DNA of 64,000 nt from Owenia fusiformis (taxonomy: Eukaryota). The notes beneath the pieces were generated by a model that saw nothing but the letters and a program-made list of their open reading frames with translations, did not search any database and was not told where the DNA came from. The stretch spans positions 21,762,001-21,826,000 of the forward strand of contig CAIIXF020000001.1 of assembly GCA_903813345.2 (NCBI GenBank), read 5' to 3'. Every line of letters starts with the position of its first letter. Position 1 is the stretch's first letter. Both the position numbers and the translations under genes were made by a program. Positions 3,001 to 59,010 of this stretch are shown here, piece by piece.

Positions 3001-5075
3001 AAACTGGAACTATCTGAGAGATTGACAACAAATTCAAATATTCAAAATTACATATCTGATTTATACTTGATGATAAACATAACATAGCAAACATCATATT
3101 TAATTTAAATTCATTTTCTCTCTTATGCTGTTATACTCCTATACTGTACTGTGTGTGCACAATGCACATAACTTTGTCAGTTTTGCATCAAGTTCTCGCT
3201 CATATATCCTTTTTCACAATGATTATGATTAAAACACCATTGACTGATTTCAAACAGGGTACAAAAGTAGGAAATCATGTAGGGGTATACAAGAGGATGG
3301 GAAATCATGTAGGGGTATACAAGAGGTTGGGAAATCATGTAGGGGTATACAAAAAGGGTAGGAGATTGTGTAGGTGTATATAAAAGAACATGTGTGGTTA
3401 CTCTGCAATGAAAAAGGGGTAGCTCTAGAGCAAAGACTTGATGCAATACTGCTATACCTGTGTGTGTACATGCACTGTGATTGATTATCTTAACATGTTG
3501 TTCTGTTGTTAACACCTAACAGTTGCCCTCTGAGGAAGAGCAGGAGTTAAGAGAGGCTGAGGCTCAGGTAAGACTATTGTCTTCTTTGCCTTGATTTGAT
3601 TTGATTTGATTTGATTTGAAAACTATATTTATTCTGGGTAGCTCTATCAGTGCAAAAAACTGGTCTTCCTAGAGGCCCAGTAATAATTTACAATTATTTA
3701 CAATGTGTACACCTTCAGGTAATATATGACATAAATATGTGAACCCTTTTTTAATATGTGAATATGGGCTCCCCCTTTACTTTTGGTCATGCCTTCTTGT
3801 GAAAAAGTACACTAAAACCTTTCAGATTGAACAGTACGCTAGAATGAATGTTTCTGTAATGAACACTTTTTCATGTTTTTTTCTCCAGATTTCCATGTAA
3901 AAGTGACCTTTCTAAATCCTGTCTGACCCCCAAACCAAAAATGTTCTTTGTCTTAGAGTGTTCACTTTAAAGGGGTTTTACTGTACATTTTCATTTGTTT
4001 TAACCCTTTTACAATGATTGTAACCTGTAAGTGACCATAATACCTGATTACTAGATGTTATCTACTTGAAGAATGATTCCCAGGATATTGTGTTGAGTAT
4101 AGTGCATATTCTGTAACAAGCACTGTATATGTTTTTTAGAGAATTTGAAATTAAATGTTATTCTATGATTGCATGAACTATGCACAAGTATTCTTAAAGC
4201 ACATACACATTACACAAATATGAATTAAGCTATCTTTATGGCAATTCATATAAGGGGTCCCATATTCACTGGTGATCCACTCAATTACGCTGGTTACCAA
4301 AACGGTTCGTTTTGGTAACAAAATGTTGGAACGTCGAATGTACGATTTTTCTTTTTTCCTTATTTCACGCGTTGTAGGCAGAATCCCCACGAAGTTTTTG
4401 GTAAACGGTTAGGGTTAAAAGTGCAGATCTTAACTGTTTTTCGAAAAACCTTTAATGTAGCTTAAGTGAGGAATTAAATCGACGATTCTGTTGTCTTCTG
4501 AACTATTTGTAGGCAAATATGTACATTTTCTTAAACATGTGATACTGATACACGTTTGTGTTAAAAATGTCACTTGAAATAAGGAAAAAAGAAAAATCGT
4601 ACCTTCCATGTTCCGACATTTTGTTACCAAAATGAACCGTTTCGGTAACCAGTGTAATCGAATTGATCACCAGTGATATTGTTTCCACATCAAACTTCTG
4701 TAATATCTTTAAAACTTTCAAGTACTCAATTTTTAATGTTCAGTCTTTGGATACTATTTATGACACTAACATGGCACAAACATTGCCTTGACATTTTTTT
4801 TACTTTTTCAGCTGGAATCTGGAAGCCAACAAGGCACCTACAAGTTCCTCAAGGTATTAGCCGCCTTAAGACATTGGGAAATATTAAATCCAGATATTTC
4901 GGCAGCAATTGAATTTTGCAGAGAAAAAATCATCCAAATGCCAATTGAGGAATACGAGGAATGGTTTAGGTCACAATTTCCCACAATTGAACGACCCCAA
5001 ACAGCACCACCTAGTATAAAAGGAGACACTAAACAGCGTGAACATTCCCATCAACGGGAAAAGTCAGCTCGGTGA
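25..5075 (+). CDS. CCDC60: Coiled-coil domain-containing protein 60 homologue (DUF4698), 5'-partial; exons 25-236, 477-586, 998-1138, 1628-1783, 2142-2232, 4812-5075 (plus candidate cassette exons 2571-2597 and 3523-3567)
   Basis: All junctions are GT-AG and phases join into one open frame ending TGA at 5073-5075. The C-terminus KFLKVLAALRHWEILNPDISAAIEFCREKIIQMPIEEYEEWF resembles the recalled vertebrate CCDC60 C-terminus (LLKVLQDLRIWELCSPDIAVAIEFVREHIIHMPQEDYISWL). The upstream WYVDLQLHMPED...KIMEKLAKF block also matches. Confidence 0.88.
1341..1520. repeat. Intronic minisatellite, ~6 x 32 bp
   Basis: Unit aatcaggtccaacatgttaatgatgttaacag starts at 1341, 1373, 1405, 1437, 1469 and 1501. Confidence 0.9.
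1945..2065. repeat. Intronic tandem repeat, ~4 x 32 bp
   Basis: Repeated cataat(a/t)atccaaattact(c/t)acatgtactgtc. Confidence 0.85.
2571..2597 (+). CDS. CCDC60: Candidate 27-nt cassette microexon of CCDC60 (KMAEKGSEE)
   Basis: ctaacag acceptor, GAG|gtattc donor, phase 0-0, purine-rich and stop-free, inside the phase-0 intron 2233-4811. Confidence 0.45.
3268..3380. repeat. Tandem repeat, ~3.5 x 30 bp
   Basis: ggaaatcatgtaggggtatacaagagg(a/t)tg repeated; explains the repetitive ORFs at 3153-3515. Confidence 0.9.
3523..3567 (+). CDS. CCDC60: Candidate 45-nt cassette exon of CCDC60 (LPSEEEQELREAEAQ)
   Basis: ctaacag acceptor, strong CAG|gtaaga donor, phase 0-0, stop-free, GA-rich. Confidence 0.6.
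4267..4675. mobile_element. Non-autonomous TIR element, CAC...GTG ends, 5-bp TSD (Transib/RAG-like signature)
   Basis: Ends cactggtgatc...gatcaccagtg, imperfect TIR of ~105 bp, ATATT on both flanks (4262-4266, 4676-4680). Confidence 0.75.
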
Positions 5076-8435: not shown

Positions 8436-9440
8436 CATAGAGAGCATATTTTGTTTAAGTAAGCCCAGAAAGATATCATGCAGCACTCAAGTGTCAGTTA
8501 GTTTGCATTCAAACACCCTTATGTGTACCTTATAGAAGATGCAAAGCATAATTAGACATTTCCAATAAATCCTGACACCTTTTGGTGAACCCAAGAAACT
8601 ATGATATATTGTCTCGATTAATGATGTCATACTTTTACAGGTAGCAATATTTGCAAAATTGTATGACATTTTGGTAAGCAAAAGGTTAATCCTTCTTCTG
8701 TGCTGAAACTGCATGAATGACCTTAAAACTAACTAAAAGGTGCCACGATTTATTGAATTGGTCTATTGCCATTATATGGAGTATTGTTACCATGTACCAT
8801 GTTAATATTTCATAGAAAGCAGCAGACTATAGACTTATGTTATTGATAGTTCATATAAGAATAGAAGTGCAGGTCAGCTGTGGTTAGACTCAGGCAGCAT
8901 GTCTTGCATTTGCTGCAAAACAAATAGGAGAAATACATGAAAATTCAGCAATCATAGGGTGCTTTAAATGCTGCTTTCAGAGACTTTTGTATGAATAGCT
9001 TTGCAAGATCATCCATTCTTGATGAGCTTTGATAATTTTTTTCTTTATTGAGTTGAAGATAGGATCAAAGCGCATTGAAAATAGACAAATGAATGCAAGA
9101 AAATTATTTCACAAATGCCTAGATTATGTCCGATTTTCAACTTTTAGCACAAATCTGAGTAAGAATTTTCCTTTTTTCACTTATTAAAGGTCTATTATGT
9201 TTTTTGATTAAAGTAAAGAATATATATTAAAATCCCTGAATCTGAGATATGAGAAAACATGTTACATGTACTGCACTTTCCGCCACTAACATCTGTAACC
9301 CACCAAATCTGTGACACTTCAATCAAAGATATTCTGTAACACCCTTCTGATCAATCCTTCAGTGTCAGCAATCATTTACATTAACAGAGCACGTGCAGAC
9401 ACGTGAAGTGCCTAATCTTTTACTATGATGCACTATAATT

Positions 9441-12400
9441 TTATATTTTGTCATTATAATACATTTGATTTTGTTGAGGAATCTTACAAGGATATTCCTC
9501 CTTTTCCTCCCCGACAACATATCCATGGTTTACCTCCATCTTAACGTGATTCTCGTCTTCAGCATATTTCTCAATAGCCCATGGTTGGACCACACCACGT
9601 GCCAGTATTAGAAAGGCAATCATCCCAAACACTCCAATGGCAACTGCTATAAGATATGTGACCTGCCACTCTTCACGAGTTCCCTGGAACACAGAGACAA
9701 TCACATTGCAATTCATGAAAAATCCAGCAGGCACAGTTATTCAAATTGCAATTTTACATAGAAACATGCCATTCTCTTGAAATTAGGAATGTGAAAATTG
9801 CATTTCAATAAAAAACACAAGACATAAAAGGGTACCCATAAAAGACATAATTAGTTTCTAGCTTGACAAACTGTATGCAGTGAAACAATGTGAGTTCTTA
9901 CATCAGGCATTAGCATTTGAATGTATGAGTACTTACATCAACTGTGAGCATTTGAATGTACTGTACAAGTATTTACATCAGGCTTAGGCATTTAATGAAC
10001 AAGTATTCATATTAGGTGTGAGCATTTGAATGTACAAGTACTAACATTAGGTGTGAGCATTTGAAAGTACAAGTACTTACATTAGGTGTGAGCATTTAAA
10101 GACCAAGTACTCATATTAGGTGTGAGCATTTGAATGTACAAGTACTTACATTAGGTGTGAGCATTTAAAGAACAAGTTCTCATATTAGGTGTGAGCATTT
10201 GAATGTACAAGTACTAACATTAGGTGTTAGCATTTGAATGTACAAGTACTTTCATTAGGTGTTAGCATTTGAATGTACTAGTACTTACATTAGTTGTGAG
10301 CATTTAAAGAACAAGTACTCATATTAGGTGTGAGCATTTGAATGTACAAGTACTTACATTAGGTGTTAGCATTTGAATGTACAAGTACTTACATTAGGTG
10401 TGAGCATTTAAAGAACAAGTACTCACATTAGGTGTGAGCATTTGAATGTACAAGTACTTACATTAGGTGTGAGCATTTAAAGAACAAGTTCTCATATTAG
10501 GTGTGAGCATTTAAAGAACAAGTACTCACATTAGGTGTGAGCATTTGAATGTACAAGTACTTACATTAGGTGTGAGCATTTAAAGAACAAGTACTCATAT
10601 TAGGTGTGAGCATTTGAATGTACAAGTACTTACATTAGGTGTTAGCATTTGAATGTACAAGTACTTACATTAGGTGTGAGCATTTAAAGAACAAGTACTC
10701 ACATTAGGTGTGAGCATTTGAATGTACAAGTACTTACATTAGGTGTGAGCATTTAAAGAACAAGTTCTCATATTAGGTGTGAGCATTTAAAGAACAAGTA
10801 CTCACATTAGGTGTGAGCATTTGAATGTACAAGTACTTACATTAGGTGTGAGCATTTAAAGAACAAGTACTCATATTAGGTGTGAGCATTTGAATGTACA
10901 AGTACTTACATTAGTTGTGAGCATTTAAAGAACAAGTACTCACATTAGGTGTGAGCATTTGAATGTACAAGTACTTACATTAAGTGTGAGAATTTAAAGA
11001 ACAAGTACTCACATTAGGTGTGAGCATTTAAAGAACAAGTACTCACATTAGGTGTGAGCATTTGAATGTACAAGTACTTACATTAAGTGTGAGAATTTAA
11101 AGAACAAGTTCTCATATTAGGTGTGAGCATTTGAATGTACAAGTACTTACATTAGGTGTGAGCATTTGAATGTACAAGTACTTACATTAAGTGTGAGCAT
11201 TTAAAGAACAAGTTCTCATATTAGGTGTGAGCATTTGAATGTACAAGTACTTACATTAGGTGTGAGCATTTGAATATAAAAGTACTTACATTAGGTGTGA
11301 GCATTGTAATGACTACAGGAGCCACCATACCAGGGATTGTACCTATAGTATTTGTAATCCCAAATAACAGCCCTGCATATCTGTAATATAGTAAATAAAT
11401 AAATGAGAGTACATCAGATTTCAAGTTTTACATTGGCCTATCTGCCTATACAGTATTATTTTCATCAATCTTGGATAAAATTTAGTAAAAGAAGCCTATG
11501 TTCTTCGTTTCCTTATCAAATAATATTTCTAAAACAAAATTAGCATTACATTAGGACACCCTGTTAGACTGTAAAAAAATATTTTTGATTTTCCACAGCA
11601 CATTTTTTTTTACCTTGGTGCAATGTCGACATGGTTGACCTGATAGCCAGATTTCTGTGGTCCTGTACATATTCCAATTAGTGCAAGTAGTACTAAGGCT
11701 TGTATCCTTAGATCACAATCAAGGAAACTCACCCAGACAGTCAGTATAGCAGGCAATACTATACCTGAAAAAGATGATATATTAGATCTTGTATTTATAG
11801 AACATTATATTTATTTAATTTCTTGTACCAACAGAGTTTTTTATAACATACTGTCCTGGGTTACTGCACACACCTTGCTAAAGACTTCAGGAAGATAAGT
11901 CAGGTCCTGAGCCAGATATAAGACGTTTTGTAGCATTGTACCGAAACACATAAAGCCTTTATTATGTACACTAGGCTTTACATTGTGCTTGCAGTATTTA
12001 ATTTTTATGAATGCGTACAAGAGAAGTTCCTGGAAACATTTTTTCAATTTTAAAGTCCAATGATGGCACTTCATGAATTTACAGCCAATAGAATAATGGT
12101 TTTCAGTCAATAATTCATATAATTTTTCAATCTTCTTTACAATAATTTCCCAAGGTTGTATTTGTCTAGTCTGGAAGGGGTTGCCTCAAATAACATAACA
12201 TGCAGCTTCTAGAGTGGCAATAATGACAGTACCTACAAACTGGAATAACTTCCTGACTGCGACTGTGGACAACCATTTCTTCGAACGAATGACATCTGCA
12301 AGTTTGGCAAATGCGACCACAGACACTATACCAATCACCATGACAATAGCTGACAAGACACCATTCTAAACAAAACACAAATACATTTGTTTCATACATT

Positions 12401-15400
12401 TTGATTTCATATGATTTATATGGGCGCTTGTTTGTCTGACAAGTCTTTTCTCTAAATTTATACATAGATGGCTTTTGAAAACAAAAACAATATGGGTACA
12501 TGAAATGCCAGAAGGCGATTTGCCCTAACCCTGTTTATTCACTGTATGCTTGTATTTGTTAAATACACCTATTGATTAAAAAAAGTATAGTAAAAAAGAG
12601 CAATACATACCTCTGCTGGATCGAAGTTTAGCACTTCTTTCATGTACATAGGACCAGTGGAGACAGTAGCATGTACTGCCCAGTTAGCACATAGATGAGC
12701 TATTATGATTGCCCACACTGCAGGTGACCTGAGAATTGATGGCCAGGGTACACTCAGATTCTAAAATACATGTGGCATAGTAGGCAAAAATTCAGTTTCT
12801 GTTATACAGGGTGAGCCAAAAAAGATTACCCAAACTGATCTTAATAACTAGCTCATCATAGTCATCTGGTATAGGTTTTAAATCATATTTGGCACAATTG
12901 AACCTTGTTCAATCTTCTTTCATTCCACCAAATTTAATTCTAAGCTACCTTTTTGGATCACCCTGTAGATCAAAATACAGTTGAACTATGATCGTTTTAA
13001 TAAAAGTGTGCCTAATTAAAAATTGTATTCTTGTAAATGCAGGCTACATTAAGATCTTAAGTATAAATTGTAACATAATAACGTCATGGAAATATCATAC
13101 AATGTATAAACATACATAGTTCTAACATACCCTTTTTACTTGGGGTATCCCATCCTCTATGTGTTTCATTTCTTCAGGAGAGATCCTTGGATGTTGTTGG
13201 GGGCTGTCATATATGAAGAATACCCAGCATAATAGCCATAGAAATGATAATCCACCTAGTATATAACATATATGACTTGGGTATCGCTATCAGATATCAG
13301 ATGTAGGTTATATTCTGAGGGAATATATCATATTAGTATTCACTGTCATATTCCTCATTCTCTGATTGGTCTATGTCCTGTCTATGTCCTATATTTTATA
13401 TAGGAATATTAACAGGGAATAATAAAACAAAAATGTCATTCTATTTCCGAACGAATACCTAGGCCTCCGGGGTTTGGGGATTATTGCTTATAATATGCAC
13501 AGGTTTTCACCTCAATAGATTGAAATATTTGTATAATATTGACTGTAGGGACAACTTGTTTAATTTCCTATGTGGGATGGATACTGGAAATATCTTGGAT
13601 TGACATCTCATTTAATACTACATTTTCTTAACAAGTATGTCTAAAGATTCATCAAAGGATAGCGTAAGAAATTAGAATATCTTACATTGTAAGTTCTGTT
13701 AGTACAGTGTAGTAATGAATACATAAATATAGCAGTTTCTATTCTTCATCATTTCTAAATATTTCTGATGACTGTTTTGTGCTTTTGTAATGTTGCCCCT
13801 TGTGATGTGTCATATACAGTAATTAAGCATTCACAATTTAAAGGCCCACTAGCCTATACTTAATTAAAAATCATCATTGAAACATACATGTATTACTCAC
13901 ACACTTGCTCAAATATGAAACAAAGTTTAATTTGCTTAATATTGAACTAAGAAAAAAATAACTCACTTAGAATGACATTGATAAAAACTTGATATATAAA
14001 GCTTGACAGATCAAAAATATTTTTTGATTGATTATTGTAAACTTTGATGTGGTTCGTTTGAGCTGTTGTTGGTGTCAAATGAAAGATAGGGTTCTTATCA
14101 ATACATTGGAAATTCTATAGAATTCAAATAAAAGTCTTTATTTTGCCCAGAAACATTGAAAATACGCAAAGTGAGCCTTTAAAAGTGAACATTTTTACAT
14201 GTGAATACCCTTTTCTCCATTAATTTTCCTATAATTTCAAAACCAATTTATGTAAACATCGATAGTGAACACCAATCTAAGAAGCATTCATTTAAATGAT
14301 GTTTACAGTATAAACATATAGTAATAAAAATATACCATAAATGTAAAATATAGATGGCCATCCACCATCAAATCCATACTGGCAAAGGAGGCCTGATGTT
14401 CCCATGACAATCAGGCTCCCCAATCCTGCACCTGAGGTAGAGAAGAGGATGAGGAAGGACCTTTCATAGAGAGGAGCCCAGCGACTCCAGAATGCATGGA
14501 ACACTGGGAAGGCAACTCCCTTGATATGAAATAAAATAATATTGCTTTACAAACATGAAAAGTAAACTCTGCATGGAAGTACAATAATATACATTTCAAA
14601 AGAGTTCTAATTATACCATGGTATATTATGGTATCATGGTAAATATGATCTTTAAATTAGATGGAACCTATATCTGATCAGAATGATATGATCTGTAGAT
14701 GTATTCAGCTTTACATCCAATCTGCAAAATTATCAGCAATATTCAGAGGGTAGTTGGTGAGCCGATGAAAAGGGTATAATATTTCGCCAACACTGCCATT
14801 AAAATCATACATTGTGCTTTCACAGTTGATATGTGTACATATGGACTGAACAACATGAGTAAAAGGCTCCTCTCTACCATATGCAGGCCTGTCAACTGTC
14901 CCGCAATTTGCGTATTTGTCACGCATTTGCTGAAGAATTTGAAGTCACGCCAGTTATTTTTGCGTGACAGAAAATGTCACGCAAATACACATTTTACCTG
15001 GTAATTGTCAAGCAAAAATATTTCTGTAGAAAAATTTCTAAAAAAGATCGTCTACACAGCAAAAATTTGAACGCCGGAAAAAATTGTACGCATTTCGATC
15101 GGACTTTTCACGCGAATTACGTATATGTCATGCATTCCGTTCGAAATTTTTGGTACCTACCCCCAAGGTGTTCAGGTTTGGACCAAGGTGTCCACATTTT
15201 GAGGGGAGGTGTTCAACATTTCCAAGTCACTCATGTTAGGTGTTCCCAAGTTGACAGGCCTGCATATGTTTACTTTTTTTCTTCACAAATATTCAACTTA
15301 CCTGCGCCATACCAAGTATGACTCGCAGGATGATAACAGCGATTACACCACCCTTTCTCGCTCCAATAGGTGTCAGTAGTGTGGAAAGCATATTGACGAA

Positions 15401-17108
15401 CATTGCAACACCGAAAACCTTCTTAGGCCCAAGGGAATCTGATAGCCAACCCCCTAAGATCTGAGTCGATATGTAGCCATAGTAGAATGAACTCAGGACC
15501 CAGCCTTGCAGTTCCTTTGGCCACTCAAATTCACCAGCCTATAAAATTTCAGTTTCTATCTGAAATATTTTATCCTTGGAATTTCTACACATTTATTACA
15601 TATGAATAGAACTTATGTCATATACCAAACTAACCAGACTCCATAAAAATATTCCAAATATATGAGCAAAAGTGTAGTATTATTTGAAATAAATTAGGGG
15701 CCACCTTCTTGGTCACCCAGTACATCCGGTTTTTGAATTATAAAATGAAAACATATACACTTCAACTTTTATTAATTGTGGATAAGGATGTTTATACACA
15801 GGTCCTTGTTTATTTAGTAAACCTCTCAATCTCTATCTCAAAGTAAATAATGGGAATAACACATTTTGTTTACATTAAAACCCTTAATCCTCATCTACCC
15901 AAATCAGAAAACATCTGAAACTGATAACTTCCCAGAATGCCCCTGGTCACTTTAGAACCGTCATTTAGCCTACAGTATCACGTTGCTTCATAGCTCATAA
16001 TAAAATCAGCTCCCCAATGTGATCCTGGCTGATCTGCTTTTGGGTAGAGTCCTTTTGATAAATCAAATCTGCTTACATAACCTGCTTTCTTTCCTCCTAG
16101 TCCTCTGACACAAGGATCGTCATCATCATGTGTTTGGTTGATTTCCGATGTTAAGTTGGCCAGGGTCTGGTTGCTTGTCTCCCTAGTTTGCTTCACCATA
16201 CATACAATGCTCATGCTCATGTTAACACGCAGCCCATACACGAAGAAGAAGCCAAAGAATGCGATATATGCCTGAACCATGCGACATGATGTCCAAAATG
16301 ACCCTAAAAGAAATCATGCAAACATATCATACACAATTCATTTATTAAGGACAGATATTTAAACTTATTAATAATTGACTCTTACTATGTTGCCATTGTA
16401 GGAATATAAAAAAAACCTTTACTCCAAGTGTTATTGGACTTCAACTAGAATAAAATGTAATCTGCAAATCCTTGTACTTTACCCATTTGCACAGAGCAGG
16501 TTATTTTTTCTGTATTACAAAACATATGTGTAAGTTGTGAGTTGTTTGTAGAATGAATCATCAAGAGAGTTTTTTCATGCATTTCGCTTGTGTTTTTCAT
16601 CTAAAAACATCAGTTCACTTTAAAACATTTTTTTTACTATAAGATTGCAACATATATAATCCCAAAAAATATTTCTCGTTTTCAAGGGTTATCTATGGAT
16701 TAACACCCAGGTATTTTTATTTTTCATACTTCAGAGGGCTGGGAATAAAAAATACCTCGTTGTTAATCCATAGATAATCCTTGAAAATAAGAAATATTTT
16801 TTTGGGATTATATGGTGCAATCTTATAGTCAATAAAATGTTTTAAAGTGTATTGATGACTTTTAGATGAAAAACACAATCGAAATGCATGAAGAAACTCC
16901 CCCAATTAATTCTACAAAAAACTCGCGGTCCTTTGAATAAATTGTAAAATTTTATTATTATATATCATGAAAAATAGCAAGATCTACATGTCAGACAAAT
17001 CTTCTTATCCCACTCCATGAATATATCAAATGGAAATCAACAATACTACATTTTGTTTTGATTTAAAAATATATACTCACAGAAACTTGTTTTTTGACTC
17101 TTTTCCAT
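9441..17108 (-). CDS. SLC17 family MFS anion transporter, sialin-like, paralogue A (522 aa); exons 17108-17081, 16303-16077, 15538-15302, 14519-14336, 13255-13131, 12760-12611, 12365-12233, 11764-11614, 11380-11290, 9683-9441
   Basis: Ten GT-AG exons total 1569 nt in one frame from ATG to TAA. SLC17 motifs: LRVNMSMSIVCM, GEFEW...QGWVLSSFYYGY..TQILGG, FPVFHAFWSRWAPLYERS, WPSIFYIYG, DSPQQHPRISPEE, VPW..IL, NHVDIAPRYAGLLFGITNT, EWQ..G.VQPWA. Confidence 0.93.
9890..11310. repeat. Intronic minisatellite, ~40 copies of alternating 34/35-bp units containing the exon-9 end and splice donor of SLC17 paralogue A
   Basis: Unit cttacattaggtgtgagcatttgaatgtacaagta (35 bp) alternates with a ...catttaaagaacaagta variant (34 bp). 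The last unit overlaps the exon end at 11290. Confidence 0.95.
12807..12965. mobile_element. Tc1/mariner-type MITE
   Basis: TA|cagggtgagccaaaaa...tttttggatcaccctg|TA. Confidence 0.75.
13842..14178. mobile_element. Kolobok-like non-autonomous element
   Basis: TTAA|aggcccactagc...gcaaagtgagcct|TTAA. Confidence 0.55.
14884..15262. mobile_element. hAT-like non-autonomous element
   Basis: Perfect TIR caggcctgtcaact...agttgacaggcctg flanked by catatg on both sides; CpG-rich interior with repeated tcacgc motifs. Confidence 0.75.
16538..16926. mobile_element. Foldback element with ~175-bp imperfect inverted arms
   Basis: 16538-16716 is the reverse complement of 16747-16926 (for example ttcatgcatttcg/cgaaatgcatgaa and tatctatggattaaca/tgttaatccatagata). 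Confidence 0.75.
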
Positions 17109-17592
17109 GTCTGGGAGATGAATAGTGCTATCTATACATTGATATACATTCAAAAACGTTATTTATGTCACCTAATGTAAATAGGTCACCTGTTGTGAAC
17201 AGTTAACAAGGTTTAGGTGATACTGGTAGGTGATAAAGGGACACTTAATATATCAACAACATAAGACATTATCATACAATAGCCTTGTTGAATTAAGATA
17301 CACACGCTTTTTGAATGTCATCTAATATAAGGCTGGTTACAAGTTCAAATATTGTCTCTCTGGTATTTTTTATAATGTTTAATCAAGATTCTTTTTTAAA
17401 AAATGTTGAATAAAATAACATCTAGTATCTACTGCAAACATAAAAATGCATAAAAAACTAGGAAAGATAAAAGTTGGTAGAGGCATTCAACTTATTGCCA
17501 AAATGTCAGCCAATTTAAATTCGTGTGATAGTTTTGAATAAAGTGCTCACTGATTTAGAAAAAGTGTCAGATTGACTTTCAACATGTATAAA

Positions 17593-18219
17593 CACCCTAT
17601 GCAGACAGAGCCTGTGGGAAATATTGGGTGCGGAGCAAATGAGTGGAGGGTGCGGAGCTAACGGTCATTTTTGAATTTAAATTTGGGATATTTCTGAAAT
17701 TAAGCCGTTTTGGGACTTCAAATATACCAAGATATGTGTATTTGACACCCACCAAATATCAATACAATTGTGAAAATAGTAGCACAATTCATTCTATAGC
17801 GACGCAGTGTGCCTTAAACCTTTCCCAGACCTATATATTTTGAAATTATCCTTTTAATACTGAGTCCCCAGCATTCATAAAAAATGGTGTTCAAGGTACA
17901 CTATCTATACAAATTATTTTTGCATCGAAGCCAGGCAGTATCTGTGTGATTTTATAAAAATTCGGAAATGTTTTTCAGATAGAGCCCCCTCTAAATATTG
18001 GGTGCGGAGGAGCTCCATGAACGTACCTCCGCACTACTATTTTCACAATTTTATTGATCATTGGTGTCAAATACACATATCTTGGTATATTTGAAGTCCC
18101 AAAACGGCTTAGTTTCAGAAATATCCCAATTTTAAATTCAAAAATGACCGTTAGCTCCGCACCCTCCGCTCATTTGCGCCCCACCCAATATTTCCCACAG
18201 GCTCTGTCTGCATAGGGTG
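17593..18219. mobile_element. Long-TIR non-autonomous element, CAC...GTG ends
   Basis: caccctatgcagacagagcctgtgggaaatattggg...cccaatatttcccacaggctctgtctgcatagggtg, ~190-bp TIR, flanks ATAAA/ATAAG (4 of 5 match). Confidence 0.8.
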
Positions 18220-18329
18220 ATAAGCATAATATTTTAAAATATGTATACTGTACATCCATTGAACAAGTTAAAGCAAAACATCATATTATGACATAAAGGT
18301 AGTCATTTCCAATGTTGAAACCATTTTTA

Positions 18330-18860
18330 CAAAACATGGTGGCCATTTTAAATTGGGAAACTATGGTACTGAAAATCTCTTTGTGAAAAGGTCTTTATGC
18401 CCATAGGCCTACAGTATTACCGTATAAATAACCAAGAACCAGTATTTGAATTATCAAAAAATTAATCTTGAAAATTTCTTTTTGAGCAATAATCCTATGT
18501 CTCTAGGCAGTACCATATAAAAAACCAAACCGTTGACTGGTATTTGAGCTATCAAAGATTGAATTCTTTACAAAAATGGTGGCCATTTTGAATTGAGCAG
18601 CCATATTGAAAATTCCTCGTTGAGCAGATGTCCTACACCCATAAGGCATAAGTCTATTATAAAATTTGAACCAAATCCTATTACCGGTATTTGGTTTATT
18701 GCCTGAACAAATGAACGAACTAACGAACAACAAACAGTTGTCTTCTCTATATCCCTACAAACTTTGTTCGGTGGGATAATAAACAAATCTACAAAGTGAA
18801 CAGACAAACGAATGGACAACTTCTCTATATCTCTCCTGAACTTTGTTAGATGGGATAAAT
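18330..18860 (-). mobile_element. Helentron/DINE-like non-autonomous element remnant (related pieces at ~6800-7040 and ~33860-33990)
   Basis: Repeated atggtggccatttt units, a gaac/gaca microsatellite-like tract, and terminal hairpin ctctatatccctacaaactttgttcggtgggata followed by an A-run; the end is duplicated. Confidence 0.55.
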
Positions 18861-19528
18861 AGGTACATGCTATCAAAAGTACAAAAGTAAACAGATTACA
18901 AATTATATTGTAAATTATAGACAAGTCACTCTGTGATGTTAGTGCACTTGAAGGGCAAAATGATAACTGGTCATAAAATAAGATTATGCCATTAATGTAT
19001 GATTATCACACCCATAAAATAGATAAAATGAATGGAGTGGGAAGCTTGACCTTTTTATATAGATCTCATACATTCAAAAAACATCAGAGGAGATTTTACC
19101 ATACCATGTGCATGATTAATTAGTAAACTTTCTCATGAAAACTTTTTTACATATTTTTGGGGATTTTCTCATAAAAATCCTACTGTCCCCTAAATTCATT
19201 TTGTCCATTTAACAGGTGTGATTATACAGCTGAAATTGATGGATCTGAATTCGATTAGACAGAGAAAAACCAGGTAAAATTGTGGGTAACTGAAATGCAT
19301 CTACATCATCCTCAGTAAAATACCAACAAAACAATTTCAAAAACAAATCAAATTGTATTTTAAAAATTACCTTCATATAGTTTATGATAATTGTTATATT
19401 GTGTTAACAAACTCATGATTTAAAAATACCTCCTACTGTAAAATATATCCCTTATAAATAAACCAAAAGGAGACACCGGACCTCTATCTTATAACAATGT
19501 CACTTGATTACTTTGAAACACTATGCAC

Positions 19529-22500
19529 TCATGTTACAAATAACTTGTAAATTCTCACTGGTATAAAAATTATGCATTCAAGAATTTTTGTAATAATGTA
19601 TACAAAAAATCTAAGAACTGAATAAAGAAAACCAGTTTTATTAGTCAGTCCTGTGTATTTAAATTGAGCCTGAGCCCAATGTTGAATTTCTCCTTTCCCC
19701 ATTGTGATGAAGAATATGGTCCCTAGTAGATTAATAGCAGTGTTCATGAAGGCTACCGACTGCCACTCATCTCTAGTGCCCTGCAATCACATCCATTAGA
19801 TTGTTTAGACTATGTCAGTGGCGTAGCAAGGAAGGAAAAGGTGACGAGGCCACATGACTACAAACGTATATTATATGCAAAGTTATACGGAATAAACACC
19901 ATTAAATGTGAACAAAGTTCGAGGATGGCAAAAGAAGAACACAATGATAACCTTAATTGATGAGATTGTGCACAATTAAATGAAAAATCAAAAAATGATG
20001 ACTTAAGATTAAAAATTAATAAAATATATATACAATTAATTTATCTATATCAAAAATATCAAAAGGTGATGAAGCAAGCTCTTTGTCTTGCCTCATCTGC
20101 CACATCCTCCTTAGCAGGCTTCCAGAATCGTACCTCCTTCTTACAAAAATGAAGAATAGATTCTGGATTTTGAAACCCTGCGTACGGAGGATGCATCTGC
20201 CAATGCTTCAGTATGTGTATGTGTTTATTATATTCTCCATGGCATGTTCTTAGGAAGGAAAAGGCAATGATGTAAAAATGCCATGTTCTTAGGAAGGAAA
20301 AGGCAATGATGTAAAAATGCCATATCACTTGAAATCATGATCTTATTGAACCCAGGTGGAACTCTACTATACCTAGCCCCTAGAAATGCAGAAGATACTC
20401 TGTTTGTCTAAATGTATTGTTTAGTATATTTTTGAAAGTACCTTAGGAAAATGCTATGTTCTTAGGAAGGAAAGGGTAATGATGTAAAAATGCCATTCAT
20501 AGGTTTATATCACTTGAAATCATGACCTTCCAGGTGCAAGTTGCACTAATTGCTCCCCATATTGTAAGTATTACATTCAAATGTTGTATTATTGATTTCA
20601 TTTATTAAAGATGGCACCATCATCAAGTCTCATATATGTATCTCATATCAGTTGTACACCCCTCAAAGTTAACAATGCAAATTCAAATTGTAGTTCTAAA
20701 ATATTCTTGCCTTAGTCACACAATATGTACTTATATTTTAGCATCTAATAATTAAATGGGTCCTTTATTTTAGTATTACCAAAATTGATTCTCTGTTGAT
20801 GATAAATTTTTGTCAAGGATTTATTTCACCACAGGATTCCACAGAATAGTGAGACACCCTGTATAAGTGACCGTCTTATTTTATTTCCTAATCTCTCATA
20901 TGAATTGATATAATGTTCTTACATTTTTTGTCATTCTGCCTATTAAGATTGGAGCGACCATGCCTGGGATTGTTGCTATGGTGTTTGTTATTCCAAACAA
21001 TGTTCCGGCAAACCTGAAAAATATTTCTTGTATTAAAAGAATGTATTGACATTGTTCTACCTATATGGTGGAATTTGAAATGATTTGATAAGGGTTCATA
21101 CTTTGAAGAGGCATTCATGATCCAAAAGAGCTTTAAAATAGAATATTAATAATATACAGTGAAGCTTGTCTTATTGTAGCTAAGTAAGTGTTTACATTGA
21201 AAGGTGTTCAGATTAGAGAATTGTTCGGATATACAGGTTTTATTGTTTTGACCTTAGATTTCTTATGATCTTTAAATATGACCTTGACCTTCTCTGCCCA
21301 AATATGGTCATATATAGGTCAAATGTCAATATAGTTCAGTCATGAAGAAGTACATACAAAACCATAGAAATGGTGATATACTGTAGTAAGGACATAAAAA
21401 TGCAGTTACCACCATTTTAAATAGCTTAATTTTCCCTCTTTAAAAAAGAGAGGATACACAATACACATGTATGGATACACATATACACGTACTGTACTAG
21501 GTTCTGACCCTAAAGGTAAGTAAACACTGACCTTGGAGCAATGTCAACATGGTTCACTTGGTATCCTGATCGCACTGGTCCAGTGAACAGTGTAGCAAAC
21601 ATCATCAGAAACATGGCCAGGTAAAAGTTGTTGTAATCTAGGAAACTTAACCAGATTGTGAAAACTGATGGTAACAATGTCCCTATAAATAAAAGATGTA
21701 CATGTACATACTGTCATGACTAGGCTTCTCAAAATAGTAATAAATAAGAAGCATTGGAAAATCACAAGATTATTATTTGAATTGGTTCTATAAATTTGAT
21801 AACTTACCCATGACCTTATAGTATTTACTGATAATTTTGCATTTCTAAAGAAATAATATTTATATGTCAAAGCATATACTAGTAACTAGTATAATAAATA
21901 GTCTGATAGTTTACCGAAAATCTGGAATAATTTCCGTACTCCTGATGTAGACCAGGTGCCACTCTGCCTTAAGGAATCAGCCAATTGCCCAGATATGACC
22001 GTACTAGATATACCAACCACCACACCAACACCCGATATCAAACCATTCTGAAATCATAGCAGTTATAAGTGGACAGGACTCCTTGATACATTAAGAAGGG
22101 CCAGTTAACTTGCAAAGAATCTTTGTTGTGTACCAGCATATTTATGTACGAGGGGTGATCCAAAAGTCTTGGACGCCCCGCTCTAACTTTGCTATTTTCT
22201 AATATAATTACATGAAACTTTCAGATAATAAGGATCAACATCTTAACAACTTTGTGTATAAGTTTCAACAGAAAATAATATAATTTAGCTACTTTTCTAA
22301 ATAGTTTTTGATACCGGGTCCCTGCCACTGTTTTAATATGGCAAATACTTGAAGTGCAGATGTAAAACCTAACACCAGTCATGATATGAGAGAATTTCCG
22401 ATTTTCAGTCTGAGTGTCATCTGCTATCATCATCTTCACATATTAAAACCTACTTTTTTTTTTTTTTCCACGAATTTGAACACATTATTCATACCGCTTT

Positions 22501-25500
22501 ACCAAGGAATGAAAGTCATTTATGAAACCGTCATTGCTTATGTGATACAAATGCTGCTGGAGTGCCACTCTAAACCTCATCCAATGAGTAAAAACATTTT
22601 CTTTCAACCCTCCTTTCAACTAGGAGAAAAAGAAGAAAATCACATGGAGCCATATCTAGACTGTATCGTGCATATGGTAGCTGCTCAAGGTCAATAATAG
22701 TGAAACTTTAATGTCGTATTCTTTGTTCCACTTTGATTTCTTTCATGTTCTGACTTTCAGCAGCCATCTTGGAGAAAAAATGATACCAGAATGAGGGTTG
22801 ATTTTCTGATGACAATTTTTTAGAACTTGACATATACGGCCATTGTTATATGTGATATTATAATAAAAACACAATTAATTGGTTGCCTGATAACAAAGAG
22901 AGTAAACTAATATGGTTTAACATTCAAAATTTAAGGAAAGATAGTGGTCAAGACTTGCAAACCGAGTCAAATAGCGGCAACATTTAAGGCTAAAAGTTGC
23001 CATGTGCGAATACCGTTCCGGGTGGCAGGGTCACTATATTAATAACTATTGAGAAAACTACATAAAATATATCATTTCACCATGAAATTAATACACAAAG
23101 TAGTTAGGTTGTTGGTCTGTATTATTGGAAAGTTTAAAGATATTTTATCAAAAACCAACAAAATTAGAGCAGGGCGTCCAAGACTTTTGGATCACCCCTC
23201 GTATGAATGCACATAAAATAACACAGCACTTCTTCAAGGTCTTCCATGATTAAGTGCAAAAATAAAACCATAATATGGGATATATAAGTACTACCCAAGA
23301 TTTATTGCTCACCTTCGATGGTGGTTAACAGCAATGAACAACAATAAACAATGGAACACAATAAGAAGCAATGGGTAGATGTACATGTATGAATATTTTA
23401 CATCTTAATCACTCGAAAGGAATATCTCTGCATCGAGTTATTTACAAGTTCAGTCAGAATTTTATCAACGCTACATATAAATGGTGATTTCTCATCACCT
23501 GTTTGTGAAAATATGATTTCCATGTTTGTAGATTCTCCAGAGAGCCCATGTTTGAGACAGTATCAAACCATTGAGAAAAAAAATTTGGCCAAAATCTAAT
23601 TTCATTTTGGTTTGTATCCCATACCATAGTATTACAGTAACATGTAACAATGGAGAATTTATCCTTGCACGATAAAAAGCAATTTTTCAGTTTTGTCTTA
23701 TTTTATAAGAAAGAGTCGCAGTGAAGGAGACAAAGAGTTACTCACTGCGCCAGGCTCAACTTTGAAGACATCTTTGGAGTATGTAGGTCCGCTTGTTGTC
23801 ATGGCATGAACGACCCAGTTAGCACAGACATGGCAGAGTAAGAGTCCCCATAATGCTTGCGATTGGAGGATATCTACCCATGGTACTGTTAATGTCTGCA
23901 ATGTAGATAATATGTTCATATAGGGCTAAGTAGTGTAGACATAACAAATAAAGAGAGTCCATAATGTTTGGAAAAAGCAATGAAAATATGTATGCTTAAC
24001 CACAAATTATAATAGGATTCAATATTCAAAAACTATAACATGTGATATTTGCCAAGAAATGTGTGTTTTGCATTCTGAAAATATTTTGCTATCAAAGAGA
24101 ATATCAAATTACAAGTTGGCTACACCTTAATAAATGAAAAGTTTGAACAGTACTCATGCAAATATTTATTGTGAAATGTCATTTCATGGCTGGACCAAAT
24201 AAACAAGGCATTAACATGCAAAATGTCACCACCTGCCATTTGTTACAGATGCGGAATACTGCGCACCAACCACCAAATTACAACAACTGAACCCAGTCCA
24301 CAAAAAGGTTGGAGACTATAACTTGTGGTGGTAACATCAGGAAACATTATGTACCAAGATATGTACCTCTGTTTTCTTGCTTGTGACTCCAGCTTTGATG
24401 TGTTTAAGTTCTTGCTGTGATATAGTGGGATGTTCATCTGGGGAGTCATATACATTCTGGTACCAAAGGTACAACCAAAAGAATGTCAACCCACCTGAAA
24501 AAAATAGGCAAAATTTTATCTTTATAACACATGTGAAATAGTTCTGATCAATTCATAGAGCAATTATTCAAGGCTGTTGTACAAATCTGTCAATTTATTG
24601 TGCTAAAAGATTAAAACAAAAAACAAAATATCTAGATTCAAGACAAAACTGGATTTGAACTCATGCCGTTTTATTAACTACCTCCAAAACATTGATATTC
24701 AATATTCATCTAATCTGATAATATATTACAGAATAGTATTACAGAATAATTTATTTCAAAATGATGAATCAAAAAACATATTCTAAAGAGAATGAAGAGG
24801 AGGGAGTGGACTATAATACAGGATCAAGGTAAATGGCAGGGGTGGTATTGAATTGGGATCTCCTTCAGGAGACAATGGGATACTGTTGCTGTTGCTACTT
24901 AAATGGGGCTTCACCTAAACAAACCAACCAACCATACTAATTTGTTAGCCATAGTGTTCCATATGTATACCTGGCATATAGAAGGTAAGGGGCCATAGGC
25001 TGCTGTCTATCTGGCAAAGTGCCCCTGATACTGTCAGTCCAAGCAGTGCACCAAGACCTCCCCCTGAAATTAGAGATGTCCTCCCTGTAGTTTTGCTCAT
25101 GTAAAGTTAGACAGTGTACAAGACAATCAACTCCCGCAACAGTTCCTTTGTTAGTAAAATTTTGTTTGATTCATCATGAACAAGTTTTATCATGATGACA
25201 TGGCATTTTCTTCCTTTTAAATGTTTCTTCAGTGTTAACATTTCTGCCTACTCCAGATAAAAACTATAATAGATAACAGAAGGCATGATATCGACAAACA
25301 TAATGGTAATAACAATTGCAAATAAAAAAGTACCTGAATTTGTGAAAAGAATCAACTTGGTTCTTTCATACACTGGTGCCCAGCGACCCCAGAATGAGTG
25401 AAAAGCGGGAAATGAACAACCCTGAAAAAGAAGTTCATACAGAGGGGGCCAACTATGTCTCTAGGCTTTCAAAATAAATATAATGTATTAATGATTATAT

Positions 25501-28500
25501 TATGCAAAAAAGGCATTAACTTGCCATTTGTTATAGACACCGAATGCAACCACCAAGCTCCAAACACTGTCCAGAAAAAAGTTGAAGACTATAACAATAT
25601 CTTGGTGGCAATATAATAAAACTTTAACTTAACAAAAAAGCTCCTGCAGATCCAGAAACTCACTTAATTTGGATCATCAAAATGGTAATACATAATATGA
25701 GTTCAAAATATTATCAGTAATTGACTTTTTTAAACACAATAGATGCTCACTGCCCATTGAATCACGGAGGATAAGCAAAACGAGGGTGAAGCCACGGACT
25801 GCGACTCGCGTAACTTTACACCGCAGCCCAGCGCCAAAATGGAGGGACATCCGGCAGTGCCTTCTGCTTCTTCCGACAAAATAGAGAAATCCAGGTATTT
25901 TAAATGCTATCGTAGTGTCTAATCGGTGACCAAAATATTACTCTGTATCTACTGTTGGTCTGTAGATAAGAAAATAAGCAGTTGTCCAGATCAAGCTAAA
26001 ACAGTAGCAAAGTTCTGATTTTACCTGTTAAATATGTGCATATTATTTAATTTACTATACATTTGAAAGGAATTTTAACACGTTTCTGATATCTAAAGGT
26101 TAGTTGAGGCTCCGAGTATAATTCGTGAAAATGATTTGATCAATAGAATGTGTTCATGAGGAGAAAATTAGATTCAAACTGCGCATTCATAGTGGACGCA
26201 GTCCAGTAAACAAAGCTATTTCAACAACGCAACACAGCCTCCATTGATATTCTAAGTAACGCAGTCCAGCCGCGAACACGAAATAAATAAGATAGTGTAA
26301 ACTATATTCCTACGCTATTATTGTTTCAGGAAAAGAAAGTCAGCATCCAGATTATCATTCAAAGTTACGTTGATTAACATATATCTATTACCTGAATCAA
26401 TGTCCCAAATTGCTATATTGTATCGTTTAAGACCTAGAAATATGGCAATTCAATGCGTATTTGGCAGAACAGTCGAGCGCAAGATGACAACGTAATATGT
26501 TTATTACAAACTAATTTGTGGATAGGGTTAAATATATAGATAATTGGATAGTGGTGAGACTTTTTATAAGAAGTAGAAATGCGAAACAATTAACTTTTTG
26601 ATGATGCAATAAAAGCTGTTTGGGAAGGGTACATTAACTAGTATTTAAGATATCAGGGAAATATCAAATAATTGGAGAGTTGGTGAGTTAATGTAATTTT
26701 GGATGATCTTTCCAACAGTCCATCAATATTGCTAGCTACCATAAATTCATGATTTCAGCTGTATTGGACAGCTTGCATATATTTGCAGAATGGATTGAGA
26801 CACGATGTAGGTCTATTAAAATAGCCCTTTATATTCAATTTTGTCCAAAGTTGCTCCATTTCAGCCACACCTGTACACACATTGTGCTATCTACCTTTGG
26901 CTGTAATTGCGTTCAGCTTCAGATATAAAGCAACACTGAGTCGCGGACTGCGTTGGGCAGATGGATGGACTGCGACTATTATAAATTCCAATTTTCTATG
27001 TAATTGTACGTTTTCCGCTTACCAAATATCACACGAAGATGTAATTGTAACAACAGAACATAAATAATTATATTAATTGGATGTCATTTCTGATTCCTTT
27101 GTTTAAATCGGTATATTAGGGACAAATATTGACAAAATTACATTTTTTTGTGGCAGATTTCGAATTCATTTGTGTTCATGCTAAACTATTGGACAGCCGA
27201 GCACCAAGAATGCCATTGCAGGTGGAGTGTGAATATGTTGATCACCGACTGGAACATACTAGCTATTCTGTAGAATATCCAAACCAATAATCTACCCCAA
27301 ATCCTAACATGCCTTCCAAATTAAGTTTGGACTTACCGCCATTGTTCAGCTATAATGCGTTGTAACCTCATTTTGAATTACGCGAGTCGCAGTCCGTGGC
27401 TTCGCCCTAGTTTTGCTTATCCCCCGTGTGATTTATATTTCTCCTATGATCATTCAAGTGAACTAAAATAATGTTCTCTTCTATATCTTACTGTGGAGAG
27501 TCCAACGATAAACCGCAGCACCATGACCATATAAGGTCCCCCTAGGCGAGCACCCATGGGAGTCATCACTGTAGCTATTGCACAAACAAACAATGAACAG
27601 CCAAATATGCGCTTTGTGCCAACTTTATCTGAAAGCCAGCCACCTGGGATCTGAGTTATTATGTAGCCATAAAAGTACGCCCCAAGAATCCAGCCTTGTG
27701 TTTCCTTGTCCCAGTCAAATTCACCATTCTAAAAAACAAGTACAATACATTAGAAAATACGTAGAAAATACATAGAAAATACAGATCATAAAATCTGGTG
27801 GGAATATTTTCACCTTTACTGGATTATCACTATCAATTAGGGTAATAATCTAAATGACTTAACTATAAATAATTAAAAATGAAATGGATAACACATCTCA
27901 GTGCATATTTACATACTTTTGTAAACTACTTAGTTCAAAATCAATTTATTTCAATGAAATTAACATGTCTTATGATTTTAGGTCTCTGAGAGAAATGATA
28001 AATTGCGAAGACCTTTGATTTCCTAAATATATTGTAAACAAACTATGATAAGTAATCATAATCTTGCGAATTACAAGTATCTCAGTGGGAACAAGACATC
28101 GTAACATACAAAATGTCACCACCTGCCATTTGTTACAGATACTGAGTGCCAACTGGCAGACACCAAACACTGTCCACAAAAAGTTGGAGACTATAACAAT
28201 ATGTCAACACTCGTGATGGCGACATATGATTGGAGAAACCTTACATAGCAGAGCTGCAAAATATTAAACCATTCAGATCTGATTCCATACCTGACCCTCC
28301 TTACTGTTGACCATACATATGATAGACATGCTGATATTCACTCTCATAGCAATCATCACAAGGAAGCCTATGAAGCCCATATAGGCCTGCATCATACGAC
28401 ATGATCTCCAGATGTTCTCTAAAACATAAGAAGGATATGGTCAGTCTTTCTCTTGAAAATGTCCTTACTCCAATGGGTGGAGGGGAGCCTTTAACATTTA

Positions 28501-38143: not shown

Positions 38144-40598
38144 CACGGGATGTCATCGCCTGATTTGGTCAATGTTAGGGAGCAGGTCGTTTTTACAATA
38201 AATTTCAATATTTTCACACAAAATATTTTTTTACTGAAAAACTGCTCATTCGCAGAGAAAATGTACTAGCACATGCAATGACAATGTCAATCACGCTTCT
38301 GTACTAAATTCGGCGGAAGTCTTTTATAATCTAATACGAAGTTACTAAAAAAGGCGCGAACGCCCTACACTCAAAATGATCGTTTTTCCATTATAACTTT
38401 TTAACGTAATTTAACGAAGGCTTCTAATTATTATCCAAGATAGTCTAAATACCGATTAAAATATTTCTTACTTCAAACAGATACGCCGTCTTTTATTCAA
38501 TTTTTTAAAAAATAATAAAAAATAACTCTTGTCAATGTTAGGGAGCAGTCAATGTTAGGGAGCAAAATGATTTTATCAGAATATTAAAAATGTAGCAAAT
38601 GGCCATTTAAAATATGTATGGCATTTATAAACTGAACAATTTTGTTTGTATGATTATTTGATACCCTTTGGGGAGGAAAGCGTTAAAATTGTAAGAAAAT
38701 CATTGAAAAGGTTATTTTGCATTTTTTATTTTCAGCTAAATCCTGTTTACGTTCGTTTTAGAAATATTTAGATGCGAACCATTCCTTCTTTATTCGTTGA
38801 CCTCTAACTGTAAATGAATGGATGTATCGTTATATACACTTTTTGATGATGTCATCAGTTCACAATCCTAAATTGTGGATGATAAATTATCTGAACTGAT
38901 ATATAGGCTTGAGAAATCTCCGACATCCTTCAGTTCTATGATTTGATATTTTCCTAGTATTAAAGTAAGAGAGTTAGTCTCGCACTTATCTTTACGACCG
39001 GGTATCACCTGATAGCTGGCACAAACGCTATGAAGGGCTCATTGCGCAGTTACATGTATGATAGTAGATTTTTACACGTATACTTCAATTTGTCAATACT
39101 CAGACAATGCAGTATATAACCGATCTCTGTTATATGTGTACCACTTGCTAATGATACTCTAAAGCCCGGTATACACCAATGGGACAAGTTGGGAAGAAGG
39201 GGATACAAAGAACAAACCTTCAAAATGCCTCAACCAAGAGGAGTAGCCCCTGGACAAAGACCGACAAAGACCGATTCGTACACACTATAAAACTGATTTC
39301 TCGAAAATAAAGGATTCAGTGAAAATTGGACTTGACATTTCAGATTAATTTGCAAATTAGTAATTGGTGAAAAAATAACACTTTGGAAAGAATTTTTAGT
39401 TGTTCAAGAGAAGTGACGGTATTTTTTCCTAATATTCAATTTTTGTGCTGCTTGCTGAGCTATACTTGAAAGACAATCAGCTCAATTTATGTCTATATTT
39501 GGGTTAAAATGTGTGAAGTCCCAAAATGTTTTATTATTCTAACATTTCTAAAATATGATTGGACAAAGTTTTAGACTTTCTTTAAGTGTTACCGGTCTAT
39601 TTCAAAACAATAATTTATATACAAAGATGAGCTCATTTATTTAAATACAATATCATGAATAAAGGGAGATGTCATGTAATTATTGTATCTGGTTAAATTG
39701 TGTATATTGTGCTGAGCAATACTGTATGCTTGTAAGGTTTATACCAAGGGGTATAAAACAATCATACAATCTTGTCTAGTTTATAAATGACATACATGTT
39801 TGTAAAGGCCAATTACTCTGATATTCTGATAAAACCATTTCGCCCCACTGCATTGTTTGCTCCGCCACATTGATCATACTTATTTTTTATTATTTAAAAA
39901 AAATTAAAGAAAGGTGTACCTGTTTGAAGTAAGAAATATTTCAATATGTACTGAGATTATCCATGATAATAATTAACTTTCCTTCGTCAAAAATCTTTGA
40001 GAGTCCATTTTCTGAAGATAACAAAAATGCAAAACAATTTTTTTTATCGATTTTGTTAAATTTTGTTAAGGCAAGGGGTTTAAAATAATCATTCAAACAA
40101 TATTGTTCAGTTTATAAATGCCATACATATTTTAAATGGCCATTTGCTACATTTTTAATATTCTGATAAAATCATTTTGCTCCCTAACATTGACTGCTCC
40201 CTAACATTGACAAGAGTTATTTTTTATTATTTTTTAAAAAATTGAATAAAAGACGGCGTATCTGTTTGAAGTAAGAAATATTTTAATCGGTATTTAGACT
40301 ATCTTGGATAATAATTAGAAGCCTTCGTTAAATTATGTTAAAAAGTTATAATGGAAAAACGATCATTTTGAGTGTAGGGCGTTCGCGCCTTTTTTAGTAA
40401 CTTCGTATTAGATTATAAAAGACTTCCGCCGAATTTCGTACAGAAGCGTGATTGACATTGTCATTGCATGTGCTAGTACATTTTCTCTGCGAATGAGCAG
40501 TTTTTCAGTAAAAAAATATTTTGTGTGAAAATATTGAAATTTATTGTAAAAACGACCTGCTCCCTAACATTGACCAAATCAGGCGATGACATCCCGTG
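38144..40598. mobile_element. Young 2.45-kb non-autonomous element with ~497-bp near-perfect TIRs, CACGG ends, 5-bp TSD
   Basis: Arms 38144-38640 and 40102-40598 show only ~2 mismatches by eye; TTTCA on both flanks; no transposase ORF seen inside. Confidence 0.9.
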
Positions 40599-58320: not shown

Positions 58321-58449
58321 AGAACTACAGTAGATAGATAACAATTAATTTATTAGTTGGCAGAGAATATGTTAATTAAATAACAATAATTCATGATATT
58401 TATATATGCTTTAATTTATGAGATATGTGTGTATTGTATACATGTTATA

Positions 58450-59010
58450 CGTATATGTATGTATTTGTATATATCTTCTAAGCTGGTCCCCAGTCCCCAG
58501 TTCCCAGTTTGAGATATCTATATTGTTATATATAATATGTATGTATTTGTATGTATCTTTTAAGAAGGTCCCCAGTCCCCAGCTCCCAGTTTGAGATATC
58601 TATATGCTATATATAATATGTATGTATGTATTTGTATGTATCTTCTAAGCTGGTCCCCAGTCCCCAGTTCCCAGTTTGAGATATTGCTATAGTATAATAT
58701 GTATGTTTTTGTATGTATCTTTTAAGAAGGTCCCCAGTCCCCACTTCCCAGTTTGAGATATCTATATTGTTTTATATAATATGTATGTATTTGTATGTAT
58801 CTTGTAAGCTGGTCCCCAGTCCCCAGTTCCCAGTTTGAGATATCTATATGCTATATATAATATGTATGTATTTGTATGTATCTTTTAAGAAGGTCCCCAG
58901 TCCCCAGTTCCCAGTTTGAGATATCTATGTTTGTGTATATATGTATTTGTATCAACTATGTATCTTCTAAGCTGGTCCCCAGTCCCCAGTTCCCATTTCG
59001 AGATCTCTAT
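58450..59010. repeat. Minisatellite, ~7 x ~82 bp
   Basis: ggtccccagtccccagttcccagtttgagatatctatat...gtatgtatctt(c/t)taag repeated, alternating gctgg/gaagg variants. Confidence 0.92.

Follow-up and report, generated by a model that had tools for sequence, protein, structure and literature searches.

A 41-unit intronic minisatellite reiterating the 5' splice site of a predicted sialin-like gene in the annelid Owenia fusiformis

Minisatellites that lie across an exon/intron boundary and reiterate the splice site there have been described in several human genes and in amphioxus. In human F7, IVS7 carries a 37-bp variable-number tandem repeat (VNTR), the first monomer of which lies across the exon 7/IVS7 boundary, giving 5-9 identical donors (Borensztajn et al. 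2006, PMC1557585). The available portions of that report describe use of the most upstream donor alone, the next one taking over only when that one is mutated; the silence of the pseudo-sites and the 5'-to-3' order of takeover were shown there with 50 minigenes, and F7 is also where oriented-scanning and exon-definition behaviour was shown (PMC1557585). By the same account, LMNB2 and PDGF have only the authentic site in use, intron 2 of IFI6 (6-16) has 25 pseudo-sites of which the two nearest are used constitutively besides the real donor, and CBS IVS13 has 15-20 repeats with the first three sites used, as in IFI6 (PMC1557585). For amphioxus, the accessible sections of two papers describe "mirages", tandem duplications of exon/intron boundaries that leave splicing undisturbed and that occur in Adh3, globin BflGb6/9, troponin C and PGBD5 (PMC3087553, PMC3902484).

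Here, we report an array of this architecture in Owenia fusiformis. The architecture is already described in human genes and amphioxus, and the find reveals no new mechanism. Features of the F7 IVS7/"mirage" class that were found here are a unit length within ~10-160 nt, a first monomer spanning the boundary, a reiterated splice site, an exon part older than the array, and use of the outermost site. We consider it probable that this is a boundary-spanning intronic minisatellite of that type, removed whole from the authentic donor, with its pseudo-sites silent or nearly so. Literature searches for boundary-spanning arrays found no annelid or other spiralian example; the locus adds an annelid case to the small set of genes with a minisatellite-reiterated authentic 5' splice site.

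All coordinates refer to the window, the whole 64-kb stretch of DNA that was analysed (64,000 nt). One exon of the host gene (gene A) is 100% identical to P0001, a 968-aa Owenia fusiformis "unnamed protein product" that covers both members of a tandem paralogue pair, B (positions 28419 to 19634) and A (17132 to 8912), which are ~50% identical. In P0001, B and A are joined via a small exon at ~17132-17073 (window positions 8912-28419, minus strand), and each half is a complete ~480-aa transporter; the product is more suggestive of a merged gene model, or of read-through, than of a genuine double transporter. Pfam MFS_1 was found in exons of both paralogues (in gene A, in two exons, with E values of 1.4e-12 and 2.4e-8). 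The gene A half of P0001 (residues 457-945) matched human sialin structures over 489 residues (E 4.4e-111) and VGLUT2/3 with E values of about 1e-84 to 1e-88, and the host gene is predicted to encode a sialin-like (SLC17) major facilitator transporter. By MFS_1 and similarity, it is placed in the family of sialin/SLC17A5 and the vesicular glutamate transporters.

Contigs from four runs (X1-X4) were compared over positions 9300-12800. Judged by behaviour, X3 was RNA-like and X1, X2 and X4 were DNA-like; no run is recorded as RNA, and the kind of run is a guess. The features around the array are as follows.

11290..11380, minus strand: exon 9 of sialin-like gene A (YAGLLFGITNTIGTIPGMVAPVVITMLTPN), 91 nt, with a phase-0 end (translation, exact spliced mapping of P0001, X3 joints on both sides)
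11284..11292, minus strand: authentic 5' splice site AAT/GTAAGT, GT at 11289-11288 (X3 contig, record 17, depth 47.9; annotated protein, ...MLTPNGTREEWQ...)
9893..11305, minus strand: minisatellite of 41 units, unit 1 straddling the exon 9/intron 9 boundary (Tandem Repeats Finder, unit split, donor census)
9684..9892, minus strand: last 209 nt of intron 9, unique sequence that holds the sole good acceptor, tgtgattgtctctgtgttccag/G, 70% pyrimidine
9534..9683, minus strand: exon 10 (GTREEWQ...HVKME), followed by another intron (X3 depth drop at 9534)

The 3' end of exon 9 reads ...ATGCTCACACCTAAT, followed by GTAAGT. Intron 9 is 1606 nt long, with its acceptor AG at 9685-9684 (the acceptor G falling at 9684, where an earlier reading of the sequence, the first-pass annotation, had placed it), and exon 10 starts with GGAACTCG at 9683. 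The last coding exon of gene A starts at 8912, and the gene model splices 9534 to 8912. Other introns of gene A resolved here measure 233-782 nt; without the array, intron 9 would come to about 210 nt.

Tandem Repeats Finder returned a single tandem array at 9893-11305 on the minus strand (period 35, 40.7 copies, 85% matches, score 1955), with higher-order periods of 69 and 104. Splitting the minus strand gave 41 head-to-tail units, mostly of 34-35 nt, in keeping with the ~40 tandem donor-like copies of the first-pass annotation. Type A units (23 of 41) consist of GTAAGT followed by ACTTGTACATTCAA and are 35 nt long; type B units (17 of 41) consist of GTGAGT, ATGAGT or ATGAGA followed by ACTTGTTCTTTAA and are 34 nt long; one unit has an odd length of 40 nt. 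Unit 1 (11304-11270) is made up of the terminal 15 nt of exon 9, GTAAGT and 14 more intron nt, and so fits the earlier description of the unit as the last 15 nt of exon 9 (M-L-T-P-N) plus its GTAAGT donor. A 26-nt unit core, allowed up to 3 mismatches, had 38 matches in the 64-kb window, every one of them within 10000-11304, and no match was expected by chance (100 shuffles); the minisatellite is confirmed as real and lies far above chance. A metagenome scan with the array unit gave 0 matches, which is uninformative. Two parts of the array stand out.

10304..10855, minus strand: two perfect 276-nt higher-order copies, units 14-21 being identical to units 22-29, pattern ABBABAAB (0 of 276 mismatches)
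9893..9991, minus strand: three degenerate end units on the acceptor side, one of 40 nt (5 to 14 differences from the consensus)

The identical adjacent 276-nt blocks have two candidate origins, a very recent duplication at the higher-order level and an effect of the assembly. The centre of the array is homogeneous and its far, acceptor-side end is degenerate; these two properties, together with the perfect blocks, point to recent tandem growth.

Other repeats occur elsewhere in the window. Minisatellites lie at 58442-59010 (82/163-nt period, 570 nt) and, with 30-32-nt units, at 1341-1521, 1941-2064 and 3260-3386. A 17-nt motif is present twice in tandem at 38531-38564 and its exact reverse complement, also twice, at 40178-40211, 1.6 kb off; the pair has the look of terminal inverted repeats bounding a small mobile element.

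At the donor position, AAT/GTAAGT occurs in 18 of the 41 units (the real donor and 17 identical 9-mers), AAT/GTGAGT in 7, GTTAGT in 2 and a degenerate GT site in 3 (GATGTAAAT, GATGTAAGT and GATGTAAGA), the last two groups being weaker sites; the remaining 11 units have no GT there (10 ATGAG/ATGAA, 1 GAAAGT). Among the 40 intronic units, 29 thus have GT at the donor position, 24 of them as GTAAGT or GTGAGT after AAT. Translation from all 30 GT sites kept the frame from the outermost donor only, every inner donor leading to a premature stop: donor 2 adds 35 nt and reaches a stop after 23 codons, and from each of the 28 later GT sites the stop comes at codon 13, at a TAA formed by unit 2. The census and the translations agree with the first-pass annotation, which had many units keeping GTAAGT or GTGAGT and others mutated to ATGAG, a frameshift of 35 nt from the second donor, an in-frame TAA from donors beyond it, and a full protein from the outermost site alone. 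The 50-nt rule of nonsense-mediated decay is established in other animals. The inner-donor stops (codon 13 or 23 after exon 9) lie more than ~50 nt upstream of the later junction 9534/8912, so by that general rule inner-donor mRNAs would be open to nonsense-mediated decay.

Contigs of X3 carry four intron-less joints with GT..AG ends at annotated boundaries (9682 to 11289, 11380 to 11614, 11761 to 12230, and 12365 to 12611), and X3 covers exons deeply but introns thinly or not at all. The first of these joints, from donor 11290 to exon 10 at 9683, skips all 1606 nt at a contig depth of 47.9, and the exon 8-exon 9 joint lies on the same contig; the skip is exactly 1606 nt in window coordinates and does not size the array. 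An unspliced X3 contig over the acceptor has a depth of 2.3, and bin 9534-9650, which ends with exon 10, has an X3 depth of 91.8 against 1.41 in bin 9417-9533 beyond it. The annotated protein uses the junction MLTPN/GTREEWQ, i.e., the outermost donor. No joint from the 29 inner GT sites was listed in any of the four runs, at the level of contigs, from which rare or decayed forms drop out. The contigs of one RNA-like run and the annotation identify the product of the outermost donor as the main one; because contigs drop rare forms, the X3 result is to be read in that sense and not as zero use of inner donors. A retrocopy in DNA would formally yield the same joints as X3. The X3 array contig has a depth of 12 at a mean multiplicity of 5.33, or ~2.25 per copy, next to 2.3 for the unspliced acceptor contig, a hint, contig depth not being a copy number, that there is no visible excess of array sequence in RNA.

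These data bear first on a regulatory role, in which inner donors would be used to a meaningful extent, their stop-containing mRNAs degraded and expression lowered as copy number rises, or in which the array would alter processing kinetics as a set of U1-binding sites. The 17 inner sites that share the real donor's 9-mer, with 7 more GTGAGT sites, would suit such decoys; each inner-donor stop precedes at least one further exon junction (9534/8912), as the usual decay rule requires, and decayed products would escape contigs, so that low-level or tissue-specific use could stay hidden. When 5' splice sites are duplicated in vitro and all are occupied, the site nearest the acceptor is reportedly preferred, which would predict heavy decoy use. 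However, inner-donor joints are absent from the RNA-like X3 contigs, where the full-intron joint stands at depth 47.9, and F7 pseudo-sites of up to 91% consensus value do not compete, according to the available part of that study (PMC1557585). Nor does the array itself speak for such a role, since GT was lost in 11 of the 40 intronic units via a few amplified variants, which gives no sign of selection either way. We regard regulation by decoy donors as unlikely. A throttle dependent on copy number, in which the 29 reiterated GT sites would send an inner-spliced fraction (by tissue or allele) to destruction or would slow transcript release through dense U1 loading, is likewise unlikely; if it were true, array length would set transporter output and constitute a heritable, fast-mutating expression dial in a spiralian.

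An origin of the array, or of its length, in the mis-assembly of a shorter repeat is improbable. The 276/276 identity of the two blocks could be a collapse/expansion error, and the array is spanned by no contig of X1-X4; however, array pieces and both array edges are present in contigs of the DNA-like X1, X2 and X4, from two studies (records 4, 9, 10 and 23), and the loose ends at 10311 continue in unit sequence. In X1, X2 and X4, introns are covered and transposase-adapter loose ends and indel variants occur. A 65-nt array contig has a depth of 57-59 (X2, X4) versus ~6-14 on unique DNA, contig depth again not being a copy number, and its 31-mers have 7.9 occurrences on average in the assembly; this depth arithmetic hints at a multi-copy array. 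Loose ends at 10311 (X1, X4) and 9925 (X3) continue in unit-like sequence in a different order, hints of variant arrays among alleles. The array interior (10353-11054) has zero contig cover in the four runs and is uninformative on presence or length.

The same contigs differ from the assembly outside the array. An intron variant at 11771-11835 has 13-23 different letters in place of 58-64 nt in X1, X2 and X4, a 63-nt stretch at 12417-12481 is skipped in X2, and single-base differences are many in the DNA-like runs. Divergence between the animals sampled and the haplotype in the assembly is marked.

Removal of the array in several rounds, whether recursive or nested, had been proposed by the first-pass annotation as stepwise re-splicing, and the reiteration of donors is by itself what would suggest it. 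Such removal needs an acceptor beside a donor, and 38 of the 42 AG dinucleotides scored within the array fall inside donor-like hexamers, with a pyrimidine content of at most 60% in the 20 nt upstream versus 70% at the real acceptor. No functional acceptor directly upstream of a regenerated donor (a recursive-splicing site) was found in the array. Furthermore, an inner donor once joined to exon 10 leaves the outer donors without an acceptor. With no credible internal acceptor, we give removal in rounds very little credence. Expression-tuning decoys and stepwise re-splicing, the two functions proposed for the array, lack support in the present data, and by analogy either would run counter to the behaviour of the closest known systems.

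Accessibility of the donors was modelled by local folding (window 120/span 80 and window 200/span 150). Unpaired probability was at most 0.045 for all 30 donor 9-mers in both settings, and the real donor (0.0029 and 0.0016) fell inside the range of the copies; for nascent transcripts cut 15 nt beyond each donor, it was 0.0005 versus 0 to 0.012 for the others. Masking of decoys by structure was rejected, the real donor being predicted as no more open than the copies in both the local and the nascent folding. A 277-nt array piece folds somewhat better than its shuffles (z -2.76, 0 of 200 as good), which is expected from the palindromic AAGTACTT core, and no inference was drawn from it. As structure masking and stepwise removal are both unsupported, choice of the donor by position would remain.

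The exon end from which the units derive was compared with human sialin and with the tandem paralogue. Exon 9 of gene A ends ...VVITMLTPN/GTREEWQ versus ...VIAKSLTPDNTVGEWQ in human sialin, LTPN aligning with LTPD. In paralogue B, a phase-0 intron of 1142 nt interrupts the coding sequence at this codon (...ACAAAAAAT/GTAAGA, donor G at 20922), and the donor context AAT/GTAAG is common to both paralogues.

20917..20937, minus strand: paralogue B, homologous exon 9 end and donor, AGAATGACAAAAAAT/GTAAGA, in the same phase and without an array

At this corresponding exon/intron boundary of paralogue B no array was found, as had been noted before. Because the exon residues are conserved and the intron position is common with paralogue B, the array grew from a pre-existing exon end, and the first-pass reading of it as the amplification of an exon end together with its 5' splice site is upheld. 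On these alignments the 15 exonic nt of the unit are old coding sequence, the exon end being older than the array, which was seeded when a segment across the boundary was duplicated. A dispersed satellite or transposon-borne repeat that landed beside the exon and donated its end is scarcely credible, given that sialin and paralogue B conserve the residues specified by the 15 exonic nt and that the unit is confined to this array within the 64-kb window.

In the reading we prefer, that of a boundary-spanning minisatellite removed whole from the authentic donor, a 35-nt segment (the terminal 15 nt of exon 9 together with 20 nt from the start of intron 9) would have been duplicated in tandem and then expanded to 41 copies by slippage or unequal exchange, partly as multi-unit blocks, lengthening intron 9 from roughly 210 nt to 1606 nt. 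The array would be excised in a single splicing event that pairs the outermost donor with the one acceptor at 9684, and the reiterated donors would be pseudo-sites, silent or nearly so. By analogy, the upstream site may win by position, as the first transcribed, the first met in the 5'-to-3' direction and the one tied to exon 9, its sequence and accessibility being probably no better than those of the copies; should splicing leak to inner donors, the mRNAs would contain stops and be exposed to nonsense-mediated decay. The available part of the F7 study demonstrates the positional mechanism in mammalian cells only, not in annelids (PMC1557585). Rather than a regulator, the array is most likely a by-product that is neutral or carries a slight cost.

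The locus offers a natural test of the F7 first-site-wins rule in a distant animal with mostly short introns, and an example of an intron of ~210 nt growing nearly eight-fold, by what would be slippage. Set against the counts given in the available parts of the literature, the Owenia array is unusually large, with 41 units and 17 exact strong-donor copies versus 25 pseudo-sites in IFI6 and 5-9 copies in F7.

The Owenia array resembles IFI6 and CBS in its many reiterations of an authentic donor; the two pseudo-sites closest to the real donor are in use in those genes, whereas in Owenia the second donor causes a frameshift and no such joint is present in the contigs. It resembles the mirages in belonging to an invertebrate, in its minisatellite-like boundary duplications with many units keeping splice signals, and in the concerted evolution of the centre with divergent edge units. 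The mirage units cited, however, measure 10-160 bp, are repeated few times (3-6 copies in BflGb6) and in some cases duplicate acceptor boundaries, whereas the Owenia array is donor-side, has 41 copies and belongs to a spiralian. F7 differs in having 5-9 copies with 4 exonic nt per unit and a weak TGG/GTGGGT donor, against 41 copies, 15 exonic nt and a strong GTAAGT in Owenia, and F7 is a human gene tested by minigenes, whereas the Owenia array belongs to an annelid and is described from sequence and contigs. The two are nonetheless alike in unit size (37 versus 34-35 nt), in a first monomer that spans the exon/intron boundary, in an authentic donor followed by identical pseudo-donors of which only the most upstream is seen in mRNA (in Owenia, in contigs), and in later sites that would break the reading frame in both.
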